Source: Escherichia coli (GTDB lineage Bacteria > Pseudomonadota > Gammaproteobacteria > Enterobacterales > Enterobacteriaceae). Taken from it: a stretch of 64,000 nucleotides of DNA. The stretch lies in the NCBI RefSeq assembly GCF_003334785.1, contig NZ_QOWV01000002.1. One strand, written 5' to 3'. This document shows, piece by piece, positions 17,681-20,599 of this stretch. Below the pieces are notes generated by a model, which saw only the letters and a program-made list of their open reading frames with translations, was not told the origin of the DNA and made no database searches. Numbering within the stretch: position 1 is the stretch's first letter; each line of letters begins with the position of its first letter. The translations under genes were made by a program, and so were the position numbers.

Positions 17681-19366
17681 ATGTACGATTTTAATCTGGT
17701 GTTGCTGCTGCTTCAGCAGATGTGCGTTTTTTTAGTCATTGCGTGGTTAATGAGTAAAACGCCATTATTCATACCGTTAATGCAGGTCACGGTTCGTCTG
17801 CCGCATAAATTTCTCTGCTACATCGTCTTTTCCATCTTCTGCATCATGGGCACCTGGTTTGGGTTGCACATTGACGATTCTATTGCCAATACCCGTGCGA
17901 TAGGCGCGGTAATGGGCGGCTTACTCGGCGGTCCGGTCGTCGGTGGGCTGGTTGGTCTGACCGGCGGCTTACATCGATATTCGATGGGGGGCATGACCGC
18001 GCTAAGTTGCATGATCTCAACCATCGTTGAAGGATTGCTCGGCGGCCTGGTACACAGCATCCTGATCCGTCGCGGGCGCACTGATAAAGTCTTTAACCCC
18101 ATTACCGCCGGTGCCGTCACGTTCGTCGCTGAAATGGTGCAAATGTTGATCATCCTGGCGATCGCCCGACCTTATGAAGATGCGGTACGTCTGGTGAGTA
18201 ATATTGCTGCGCCAATGATGGTCACCAATACCGTCGGCGCGGCGCTGTTTATGCGTATATTGCTCGATAAACGCGCGATGTTTGAAAAATACACTTCAGC
18301 TTTTTCTGCCACTGCGCTGAAAGTGGCGGCCTCGACGGAAGGCATTTTGCGCCAGGGGTTTAACGAAGTGAACAGCATGAAAGTGGCACAGGTGCTGTAT
18401 CAGGAGCTGGATATTGGTGCAGTCGCGATTACCGATCGAGAGAAATTGCTAGCCTTTACCGGAATTGGTGACGACCACCATTTACCCGGCAAACCGATTT
18501 CTTCGACTTATACCTTAAAAGCGATTGAAACCGGTGAAGTGGTCTACGCTGATGGCAACGAAGTACCTTACCGTTGCTCTTTGCATCCGCAATGCAAACT
18601 GGGGTCGACGCTGGTAATTCCGTTGCGTGGTGAAAATCAGCGGGTGATGGGCACCATCAAATTGTATGAAGCCAAAAACCGTTTATTCAGTTCAATCAAC
18701 CGCACGCTGGGCGAGGGGATTGCGCAACTGCTTTCGGCGCAGATCCTTGCCGGGCAATATGAGCGGCAAAAAGCGATGCTCACCCAGTCAGAGATCAAAC
18801 TGCTTCACGCCCAGGTGAATCCCCATTTTTTGTTTAATGCGCTTAACACCATTAAAGCGGTGATCCGTCGCGACAGCGAACAGGCCAGCCAGCTGGTGCA
18901 GTATCTTTCCACTTTTTTCCGCAAAAACTTAAAGCGGCCTTCGGAGTTTGTTACTCTCGCCGACGAAATTGAACATGTGAATGCTTATCTGCAAATTGAA
19001 AAGGCGCGCTTCCAGTCGCGGTTGCAGGTCAACATTGCTATTCCGCAAGAATTATCCCAGCAGCAATTGCCCGCGTTTACCCTGCAACCGATAGTGGAAA
19101 ACGCCATTAAACATGGGACATCACAACTGCTGGATACAGGGCGAGTGGCAATCAGCGCCCGACGTGAGGGGCAACATTTAATGCTGGAGATCGAAGACAA
19201 TGCCGGTTTGTATCAACCGGTAACCAATGCCAGTGGGCTGGGGATGAATCTGGTGGATAAGCGTTTACGTGAACGGTTTGGCGATGACTATGGGATAAGC
19301 GTCGCCTGTGAGCCTGATAGTTACACCCGAATAACGTTACGACTACCATGGAGGGACGAGGCATGA
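17681..19366 (+). CDS. btsS: LytS-type sensor histidine kinase (pyruvate-sensing BtsS/YehU)
   Basis: Track ORF starts at GTG 17666; ATG at 17681 gives [18 protein letters not shown]... (561 aa); multi-TM N-terminus, C-terminal HATPase region. Confidence 0.9.
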
Positions 19367-20082
19367 TTAAAGTCTTAATTGTCGATGATGAACCGTTAGC
19401 ACGGGAGAACCTGCGCGTATTTTTGCAGGAGCAGAGCGATATTGAAATCGTTGGTGAGTGTTCAAACGCCGTGGAAGGGATCGGCGCGGTGCATAAACTG
19501 CGCCCGGATGTGCTGTTTCTCGATATCCAGATGCCGCGCATCAGTGGTCTGGAAATGGTGGGGATGCTCGACCCGGAACATCGTCCGTATATTGTTTTTC
19601 TCACCGCGTTTGACGAATACGCCATTAAAGCCTTTGAAGAACACGCCTTTGATTATCTGCTGAAGCCAATTGATGAAGCGCGACTGGAGAAAACGCTGGC
19701 GCGTTTGCGGCAGGAACGCAGCAAGCAGGATGTTTCGCTGTTACCAGAAAATCAACAGGCGCTGAAATTTATCCCTTGTACTGGGCATAGTCGGATTTAT
19801 TTGCTGCAAATGAAAGATGTGGCATTTGTCAGCAGTCGGATGAGCGGTGTCTACGTTACCAGCCACGAAGGGAAAGAGGGCTTTACCGAATTGACATTAC
19901 GTACCCTGGAAAGTCGTACACCACTACTGCGCTGCCATCGTCAGTATCTGGTTAACCTCGCGCATTTACAGGAGATTCGTCTGGAAGATAACGGCCAGGC
20001 CGAGTTGATTTTGCGTAATGGCTTAACCGTGCCGGTCAGCCGCCGTTATCTGAAAAGCTTAAAAGAGGCGATTGGCCTGTAA
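19363..20082 (+). CDS. btsR: LytTR-family response regulator (BtsR/YehT)
   Basis: [16 protein letters not shown]... receiver domain; ATGA start/stop overlap with btsS; 239 aa. Confidence 0.9.
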
Positions 20083-20128
20083 AAGACTGCTAAAATGGCT
20101 TTTTGCCTCATCAACACCTGAAGGCCTC

Positions 20129-20599
20129 ATGCTAAGTAACGATATTCTGCGCAGCGTGCGCTACATTTTGAAAGCCAATAATAATGACCTGGTGCGTATT
20201 CTGGCGCTGGGTAATGTCGAAGCCACCGCGGAACAGATCGCCGTCTGGCTACGTAAAGAAGACGAAGAGGGTTTTCAGCGTTGTCCGGACATTGTTTTGT
20301 CGTCATTCCTCAATGGCCTGATTTATGAAAAACGCGGCAAGGATGAGTCTGCTCCGGCACTGGAGCCGGAACGTCGCATTAATAACAACATCGTGCTGAA
20401 AAAATTACGCATCGCGTTTTCGCTGAAAACCGATGACATTCTGGCGATCCTCACCGAACAGCAGTTCCGCGTTTCGATGCCGGAAATTACGGCGATGATG
20501 CGTGCACCGGATCATAAAAACTTCCGCGAATGCGGCGATCAATTTTTACGTTATTTTCTGCGTGGACTGGCAGCGCGCCAGCATGTGAAGAAAAGCTAA
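20129..20599 (+). CDS. yehS: DUF1456-family protein
   Basis: Track ORF 20072..20599; start moved to MLSNDILRSVRYILKANNNDLVRILALG... (156 aa). Confidence 0.85.
   Translation: MLSNDILRSVRYILKANNNDLVRILALGNVEATAEQIAVWLRKEDEEGFQRCPDIVLSSFLNGLIYEKRGKDESAPALEPERRINNNIVLKKLRIAFSLKTDDILAILTEQQFRVSMPEITAMMRAPDHKNFRECGDQFLRYFLRGLAARQHVKKS

Follow-up and report, generated by a model that had tools for sequence, protein, structure and literature searches.

The yehS gene, which follows the btsS and btsR two-component genes of Escherichia coli, is in our view a conserved independent gene with its own promoter, encoding a putative helix-turn-helix (HTH)-like binder and not a dedicated part of the LytS/LytTR system. 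As an explanation of the locus as a whole, we hold this to be probable, with moderate confidence. In Enterobacteriaceae, yehS would simply happen to follow the btsSR operon at a distance of 46 nt, and whatever part YehS may play in the BtsSR/YpdAB network would have been added in that lineage only.

Gene order at the btsS-btsR-yehS locus

The window (the whole 64,000-nt stretch of contig NZ_QOWV01000002.1 that was analysed) carries three genes in succession on one strand:

17681-19366, plus strand: btsS (yehU), LytS-type pyruvate-sensing histidine kinase of 561 aa (open reading frame; RefSeq annotation of the 100% identical ATCC 8739 record)
19363-20082, plus strand: btsR (yehT), LytTR response regulator of 239 aa (sequence; NCBIfam BtsR equivalog NF008677)
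20129-20599, plus strand: yehS, a basic protein of 156 aa with two tandem DUF1456 repeats (sequence; RefSeq annotation; Pfam)

The match of btsR to NF008677 scored 420 bits, for a cutoff of 246. The preliminary description had reported, for the span running from the btsR start to the yehS stop (19363-20599), a 4-nt btsS/btsR overlap with the DUF1456 gene yehS downstream on the same strand and starting 47 nt past the btsR stop. Both statements hold: the overlap is the ATGA at 19363-19366 (btsR ATG at 19363-19365, btsS TGA at 19364-19366), as read directly and in agreement with RefSeq, and there are 47 nt from the last base of the btsR stop (20082) to the yehS ATG (20129), hence a spacer of 46 nt. 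Over 17600-20700, the btsS-yehS stretch, the window shows no difference from E. coli ATCC 8739 (100% identity). The same genes stand in the same order in E. coli K-12, as yehS (b2124) and btsSR (yehUT, b2126-b2125), so that we are dealing with the annotated locus itself; the layout is the same there (yehS 2211726-2212196, btsR 2212243-2212962, btsS 2212959-2214644). The Rfam scan of the whole window gave no match in the 17.6-20.7 kb region.

All this is already known: every RefSeq E. coli record gives this order of genes, the 4-nt btsS/btsR overlap and the assignment of yehS to DUF1456, and the arrangement adds nothing to the annotation. In Salmonella, a 2013 study (PMC3875573) described the yehU-yehT-yehS arrangement with a 4-bp yehU/yehT overlap, yehS on the same strand, and yehS and yehR downstream; only yehUT was taken there as a likely operon, and yehS was called a conserved hypothetical protein. 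According to RefSeq annotation the btsS-btsR-yehS order is found in all 5426 complete E. coli genomes, and 5391 records match the 251-bp btsR-yehS junction at 99% identity or more.

Start codon, probable promoter and transcript ends of yehS

The following elements lie between btsR and yehS or overlap the end of btsR:

20060-20128, plus strand: stretch in the yehS frame upstream of the ATG, not coding (TAA at 20060-20062, then 22 sense codons)
20083-20128, plus strand: btsR-yehS spacer of 46 nt, with the presumed promoter core and 5' UTR and without terminator (folding z-score; terminator scan)
20088-20096, plus strand: proposed extended -10 box of yehS, sigma-70 type, TGCTAAAAT (TGcTAAAAT, with TG at 20088-20089 and TAAAAT at 20091-20096; cross-species conservation)
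20120-20124, plus strand: yehS Shine-Dalgarno sequence GAAGG (GAAGG or AAAGG in most aligned spacers)

The preliminary description had also remarked that the yehS frame stays open back into btsR. It does so for 22 codons, but this is trivial, since the chance of 22 open codons is (61/64)^22 = 0.35, i.e. about one frame in three, and even E. albertii does not share the extension, which there consists of 10 codons without any start codon; in other loci it ranges from 2 to 180 codons. The comparison indicates that translation of yehS starts at the annotated ATG and that the frame stays open upstream of it by accident. Were that frame used, either a longer YehS would be made from the only TTG of the open stretch (20072, inside btsR, 11 nt before its stop), or yehS would be translationally coupled to btsR via the overlapping frame. 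The frame is indeed open from 20063, the TTG is available, and some automatically made public gene models give a YehS of 174-176 aa. Besides the variability of the extension, however, the btsR-yehS spacers are 45-55 nt long across species, with lengths that are not multiples of 3, the yehS start (Met/ATG) is at the aligned position in 80/80 orthologous loci, and 70 diverse YehS homologues all open with MxNND at M1, with M1 and N4 at least 90% conserved in their alignment. The conserved GAAGG upstream of the annotated ATG, and a yehS promoter element located downstream of TTG 20072, point the same way. The use of the longer frame is therefore highly improbable, and the N-terminally extended YehS was dropped.

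Transcription of yehS appears to be driven by a conserved promoter of its own. In the spacer alignment, the pattern TGnTAnnnT, 38-44 nt 5' of the ATG, is present in the window, in 22 of 26 syntenic Enterobacteriaceae loci and in Siccibacter, and TA...T in 27/27 aligned sequences while the rest of the spacer diverges, although this conservation partly reflects shared ancestry because related genomes are not independent samples. In Siccibacter, where mlrA adjoins yehS and btsSR is absent, the -10 box is kept as TGGTACACTgcgcgcc. Cedecea, Pectobacterium and Brenneria, with other genes upstream, carry TATACT and, directly after it, a G+C-rich stretch; Mixta is similar. Boxes of the -10 type with G+C-rich discriminators are found at yehS in many Enterobacterales; such a discriminator is typical of growth-rate-controlled promoters.

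Published data, once their positions are transferred to the window through K-12 coordinates, place a start of transcription in the same short region. The RegulonDB RACE start site for yehS, which was used by Reg-Seq, maps to about 20099; the yehS fragment was rated an active (1,0) promoter by Reg-Seq, and the 'activator' site that it assigns to yehS maps to about 20080-20089. Genomic SELEX with the sigma-70 holoenzyme gave a constitutive promoter peak between yehT and yehS. A consensus promoter scan found no -35/-10 pair in the btsR-yehS spacer, because no recognisable -35 hexamer is present there; the scan does not model promoters of the extended -10 type, the kind proposed here for yehS. The mapped RACE start is just 3 nt past the -10 box, where 6-8 nt would be usual; one of the two positions must then be off by a few bases. 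Main transcription of yehS would most likely come from this extended -10 sigma-70 promoter inside the spacer; the mRNA would then have a 5' UTR some 25-30 nt long, including GAAGG as ribosome-binding site.

A second source of yehS transcripts is to be expected. The terminator scan found no terminator-like site between btsR and yehS, and the spacer folds no better than its shuffles (z-score of 0.05); since nothing terminates after btsR, read-through from the btsS promoter probably reaches yehS as well. Downstream, the unit is bounded as follows:

20608-20634, no strand assigned: 11-bp GC-rich hairpin in the 40-nt convergent yehS/yehR spacer (folding)
20640-21101, minus strand: yehR, convergent lipoprotein gene (annotation; open reading frame)

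The hairpin has a minimum free energy of -26.4 kcal/mol (z = -4.57; none of 200 shuffles was equally stable) and failed the T-run rule of the terminator scan. It is likely a shared bidirectional transcript end for yehS and yehR, at which both the own-promoter and the read-through transcripts of yehS would stop.

Relation of yehS to btsSR

It had been suggested initially that yehS may be co-transcribed with btsSR. The observations behind that suggestion stand, since yehS lies on the strand of btsSR, at a distance of 46 nt and with no terminator in between. A separate promoter directly upstream of yehS, as judged from the extended -10 box, the RACE and Reg-Seq data and the SELEX peak, speaks against it. 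In its full form, the operon view would make yehS the third gene of a btsS-btsR-yehS operon, co-expressed with btsSR for matched amounts, and would give its product an accessory or connecting role in the pyruvate-sensing LytS/LytTR network. We regard this as rather unlikely, though it has several points in its favour. One is that the order does not vary, either among the 5426 E. coli genomes or across 26 species of Enterobacteriaceae. Another is a 413-aa Klebsiella grimontii 'yehT' model in AFDB which contains a complete YehS fold, i.e. a BtsR-YehS fusion, but this is a single gene model and could result from an assembly indel. The Jung laboratory may have reported that YehS makes contacts with components of both LytS/LytTR systems in two-hybrid assays, which would favour a real functional link. 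In the paralogous ypdABC locus of E. coli a third gene, ypdC, likewise follows a LytS/LytTR pair; YpdC is of the AraC type and has no relation to DUF1456. In work from the Jung laboratory the three ypdABC genes are deleted together.

The distribution of the linkage speaks against a dedicated partnership. Loci were surveyed by a profile search of genome contigs with a 29-sequence subset of the 70-sequence YehS alignment. The btsS-btsR-yehS arrangement was found in 26 of 80 loci, every one of them from Enterobacteriaceae sensu stricto, which falls short of the cross-lineage linkage to LytS/LytTR genes looked for in an accessory protein. No BtsS or BtsR homologue was found within 6 kb of yehS in Mixta, Cedecea, Pectobacterium, Brenneria and Hafnia, in Serratia, Proteus, Providencia and Budvicia, in about 35 Pseudomonas genomes, or in Luteibacter, Stenotrophomonas and others, and there was no LytS or LytTR neighbour in about 60 non-Enterobacteriaceae contexts, metagenomic ones included. 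DUF1456 genes are unlinked to btsSR even in genera reported to possess BtsSR, such as Serratia (PMC5552118), and Siccibacter retains both yehS and the -10 box although btsSR is not adjacent. In the 26 Enterobacteriaceae loci, and in every E. coli, yehS and btsSR have stayed together with great constancy, as they would in a functional operon too.

Two further points go against the accessory-protein view. In the signalling cascade that recent work on BtsS sets out, no accessory protein figures. The BtsR-type direct repeat is also absent near yehS: a scan with the repeat, which we take to be ACC[GA]CT[CT]A-N13-repeat, gave single copies at chance frequency and no pair near yehS. Since the linkage is lineage-restricted and yehS appears to have its own conserved promoter, guilt by association with BtsSR is a weak argument. 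Should YehS nevertheless modulate the BtsSR/YpdAB pyruvate network, this would bear on nutrient scavenging at stationary-phase entry.

The YehS protein and its possible ligand

YehS belongs to the DUF1456 family (PF07308), which it matches twice: at residues 4-70 (nt 20138-20338, E 3.9e-25) and at residues 86-150 (nt 20384-20578, E 1.4e-23). Its relatives form 904 clusters at 50% identity. The protein is basic (pI 9.2, for a family median of 8.8), and its predicted structure (pLDDT 97) is all-helical and consists of two tandem four-helix domains. Residues R69, G70, N87 and R125 are invariant. As modelled, each DUF1456 repeat resembles a lambda-repressor/XRE HTH domain, with a difference: among its four helices, the loop between helices 2 and 3 is longer than the classical HTH turn. 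Lambda-repressor-like (XRE/Cro/CI) HTH proteins, including bipartite kinds such as POU, gave neither a profile relationship nor a significant Foldseek match. At E <= 10 in Pfam, YehS matches DUF1456 alone, with no hit to HTH_3 or a related family; with Foldseek it has no significant match in the PDB (best E 1.4), and its matches in AFDB50 are other DUF1456 proteins only. PDB sequence searches, with the YehS protein and with the family profile, returned no relative with a solved structure, and no NCBIfam model matches YehS. In PHROGs there was one matching family, YehS itself, which is uninformative. A defence-system role was considered and dropped after PADLOC gave no match for YehS.

A different reading of the fold is that each repeat is an EF-hand-like calcium-binding unit of the calmodulin/troponin C type and not HTH-like. 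It arose because troponin C, with its helix-loop-helix pattern, was the best hit of the family profile among PDB sequences (E 0.18) and because calmodulins figured among the Foldseek matches of YehS. The calmodulin matches have Foldseek probabilities of at most 0.10, however, the troponin C hit reaches just E 0.18, and the loop consensus of DUF1456 is not a canonical 12-residue Ca-binding loop. With neither a canonical loop nor significant similarity, the EF-hand reading is very unlikely and was rejected.

We infer that YehS may bind nucleic acid, whether DNA or RNA, or conceivably a protein partner. Thus yehS, among the genes of E. coli whose function remains unknown, gains a structural hypothesis, that of a tandem HTH-like and probably nucleic-acid-binding protein. 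Hints of nucleic-acid binding come from relatives that carry lysine-rich C-terminal tails (about 27 of 147 cluster representatives of the family), or in which DUF1456 is fused to a DEAD-box helicase (one metagenomic contig only) or to a GNAT domain (two samples). In a second lineage a DEAD-box helicase is the neighbour of the DUF1456 gene, and in another a cold-shock protein gene (CspA-type) lies near it. The neighbours of yehS in Pseudomonas include TrmO, an RluF-like pseudouridine synthase and RimO, identities which rest on representative open reading frames checked against NCBIfam, longest-ORF calling having favoured antisense frames in this high-GC DNA.

A broader proposal would take DUF1456 as an unrecognised tandem HTH-like nucleic-acid-binding module at work in RNA metabolism or translation-related processes and not in two-component signalling, its adjacency to btsSR being a historical accident; we put it forward as tentative, and doubtful in this full form. 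What points to it are the HTH-like fold, the basic charge, the lysine-rich tails, the helicase and GNAT fusions and the gene neighbours just listed, together with the G+C-rich discriminators after the -10 boxes. As to the lysine-rich tails, short motifs recur in those of many YehS relatives.

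Layout of the btsS-btsR-yehS region and start of yehS

The segment from 17600 to 20700 is 100% identical to E. coli ATCC 8739 and was present in all of the complete E. coli genomes in our collection (5,426/5,426); it is the annotated E. coli btsS-btsR-yehS-yehR region. The following gene coordinates are those of the RefSeq annotation of the matching record, carried over to the window:

17681-19366, + strand, btsS
19363-20082, + strand, btsR
20129-20599, + strand, yehS
20640-21101, - strand, yehR, convergent to yehS

The preliminary description had reported a 4-nt overlap of btsS and btsR and had placed yehS, a DUF1456 gene, downstream of btsR on the same strand; its factual elements are all correct. 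The ATGA common to the btsR start (19363-19365) and the btsS stop (TGA, 19364-19366) is read directly in the sequence, as is the TAA stop codon of btsR (20080-20082), and a 46-nt spacer leads to the yehS ATG at 20129. BtsR scores above the NCBIfam BtsR equivalog cutoff, and YehS (156 aa) gives two strong Pfam DUF1456 matches (residues 4-70 and 86-150). As stated, the finding is already known: this gene order with its 4-bp overlap was reported for Salmonella in 2013 (PMC3875573), where yehUT (btsSR) alone was taken as the likely operon.

It had also been remarked that the yehS frame is open back into btsR. The opening exists (22 sense codons after the TAA at 20060-20062, one of them a TTG, at 20072) but is neither conserved nor above chance level, since roughly every third frame would be open over 22 codons by chance. 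Scanning one genome per species gave 80 DUF1456 loci, among which the number of open codons upstream of the start goes from 2 to 180; in E. albertii, where YehS is 97% identical, it is only 10, without alternative start. Spacer lengths are 45-55 nt and not multiples of three. The annotated ATG is preceded by a Shine-Dalgarno sequence (GAAGG), the aligned start is ATG in 80/80 loci from other species, and in an alignment of 70 homologues (34-46% identity) all proteins begin at the Met1 position of YehS (MxNND...), M1 and N4 being at least 90% conserved. Judged on these comparisons, the upstream open frame is to be regarded as meaningless.

One oddity concerns yehP (23226-24590, - strand): its reading frame is uninterrupted in the window, but NZ_CP022959.1, a record that otherwise matches, lists it as a pseudogene that has an internal stop. 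Either the window and that silver-adapted derivative differ at this point, or a strain-specific mutation lies behind the annotation.

Transcription of yehS

When the btsR-yehS spacer of the window was aligned with those of 26 syntenic Enterobacteriaceae loci, a single conserved island, TGnTAnnnT, stood out 38-44 nt upstream of the yehS ATG in an otherwise diverged sequence. It reads TGCTAAAAT in E. coli (20088-20096) and TGGTACACT in most other genera; the full TGn form is found in 22 of the 26 loci and T-A-n-n-n-T in all. The island has the signature of a putative extended -10 sigma-70 promoter. Such promoters do not need a -35 hexamer, which explains why a consensus promoter scan missed the spacer element.

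The same box is found away from btsSR. In Siccibacter colletis (locus L008, 5124-6468), a natural 'btsSR-less' arrangement, mlrA adjoins yehS across a 151-nt divergent spacer and neither btsS nor btsR is present anywhere within the 12.5-kb locus; TGGTACACTgcgcgcc is kept there at the same distance from yehS, with TGGTACACT as -10 box. In Cedecea, Pectobacterium and Brenneria, where yehS lies in other neighbourhoods, TATACT precedes a stretch rich in G+C, and Mixta resembles them. The Siccibacter box and these TATACT boxes support an independent yehS promoter.

Published data agree with it. In genomic SELEX, a sigma-70 'constitutive promoter' is listed for the yehT-yehS interval, and a minor-sigma SELEX study has a peak inside yehT. 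Reg-Seq, using the RegulonDB RACE start site (listed at 2212241 with a 15-bp upstream offset, hence truly 2212226), placed the yehS fragment among the active promoters, with a single site of positive effect, from -4 to +5. Through the K-12 coordinates, the start falls at about 20099 in the window, only 3 nt past the -10 box, and the positive site at about 20080-20089, abutting the TG of the -10 element. As the usual distance from box to start is 6-8 nt, the register may be off by a few bases.

Many Enterobacterales (loci L006-L027 and L028-L037) have a G+C-rich discriminator, TACACTGCGCGCC or TATACTGCCCGC, after the yehS -10 box, 30-45 nt before the ATG; the corresponding sequence of E. coli and E. 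albertii is another one, with less G+C. G+C-rich discriminators are typical of ppGpp/DksA-sensitive promoters.

The terminator scan found no intrinsic terminator between btsR and yehS, and the folding of the junction is no more stable than that of shuffled sequence (z = 0.05), so that read-through from the btsS promoter into yehS is plausible. An 11-bp G+C-rich hairpin (20608-20634), far stabler than its shuffles (z = -4.57), fills the 40-nt gap between the convergent yehS and yehR stop codons and is likely to be the end of the yehS transcription unit. The co-transcription of yehS with btsSR proposed in the preliminary description is partly supported: additional read-through may occur, but a promoter of its own is very probable for yehS, and only some lineages show the linkage (see below). 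An independent promoter, one half of what was to refute the proposal, is largely in evidence from the conserved -10 box, RACE/Reg-Seq and SELEX.

Linkage of yehS to btsSR

The 80 loci were searched by tblastn with BtsS and BtsR of the window. The btsS-btsR-yehS order occurs in 26, all from Enterobacteriaceae sensu stricto (Escherichia, Citrobacter, Enterobacter, Lelliottia, Leclercia, Kosakonia, Pluralibacter, Phytobacter, Pseudocitrobacter, Superficieibacter and Pseudescherichia). The DUF1456 gene has no BtsS or BtsR homologue within a distance of 6 kb in Mixta, Cedecea, Pectobacterium, Brenneria, Acerihabitans, Hafnia, Serratia, Providencia, Proteus, Moellerella, Budvicia, about 35 Pseudomonas species, Luteibacter, Stenotrophomonas, Crenobacter, Chitinimonas, Silvimonas and an Archangium MAG. 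Nor did a LytS or LytTR neighbour turn up in eight look-ups of metagenomic data that carried precomputed Pfam labels. Both BtsS and YpdA are reported in Serratia (PMC5552118), where the unlinked gene can thus not be put down to lack of the sensor. Only in one family, therefore, does gene neighbourhood support a functional tie between YehS and LytS/LytTR systems.

In current accounts of BtsS/BtsR signalling no accessory protein appears. No BtsR-type direct repeat was seen near yehS. YehS reportedly makes two-hybrid contacts with components of the two LytS/LytTR systems; if so, the idea of a regulatory tie has already been examined experimentally.

A Klebsiella grimontii entry of AFDB50 (A0A7H4P052, 'Response regulatory protein yehT') is a 413-aa gene model in which the whole YehS fold is present. 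BtsR, spacer and YehS add up to this length, which points to either a BtsR-YehS read-through fusion or an indel in the assembly.

The YehS protein, its family and other elements of the window

The AlphaFold2 model of YehS, built with a 70-sequence alignment, is very confident (pLDDT 97.2, pTM 0.91) and has eight helices, four per DUF1456 repeat. Foldseek gave no significant match in the PDB and only DUF1456 proteins in AFDB50; there was no sequence match to Pfam HTH families, and PDB sequence searches found no solved structure of a relative. An EF-hand-like reading, from a weak sequence pattern (troponin C, E 0.18), was unsupported by the fold searches. The protein is basic (pI 9.2; family median 8.8), with many basic positions conserved and R69, G70, N87 and R125 invariant. 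It matches phrog_17437 of PHROGs end to end (E 2e-109), a case of a core host gene brought into a phage-protein library, presumably through prophage-boundary errors.

Tails, fusions and neighbours were noted among relatives (proteins P0139-P0259; loci L083, L085 and L092). Lysine-rich C-terminal tails of 40-130 residues, with recurrent short motifs (YxNPNA, LSLKK, a terminal Trp), occur in about 27 of 147 cluster representatives. The fusions and neighbours are anecdotes, not statistics: DUF1456 is fused to a DEAD-box helicase (DEAD + Helicase_C) in one representative (single contig) and immediately adjoined by a helicase gene of this type in a second lineage; another representative is a GNAT acetyltransferase fusion (two samples), GNAT genes also lying nearby in Pseudomonas and L092; a CspA-type cold-shock gene follows in another lineage. 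In Pseudomonas, the gene is flanked by TrmO (above cutoff) on one side and, on the other, by an RluF-like pseudouridine-synthase homologue that scores below the family cutoff; RimO, recognised by eye, lies upstream. Together with fold and charge, these associations point towards a nucleic-acid-related, perhaps RNA-related, role rather than two-component signalling. A more doubtful proposal makes DUF1456 a tandem HTH-like module that would bind nucleic acids and act in RNA metabolism. What structure and comparison add here is modest and does not amount to a new kind of system. Reported knock-down or knock-out phenotypes of yehS (altered growth in butanol or hexane, antagonised tetracycline) are non-specific.

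Elsewhere in the window, Rfam gives a strong match (101 bits; gathering score 60) to the OrzO-P antitoxin sRNA at 27845-27920 (- strand), which indicates a probable zor/orz type I toxin-antitoxin locus between ORF 26645-27799 and ORF 28418-32050. This locus was described in O157:H7 and is not known from K-12. Three further Rfam matches were above gathering score: a Peptidase-S11 RNA motif (7329-7409, + strand) directly 5' of ORF 7405-8346, a TPP riboswitch (46896-46992, + strand) upstream of the ORFs at 47027-48612, and the REP-derived naRNA4 (54847-54917, + strand).
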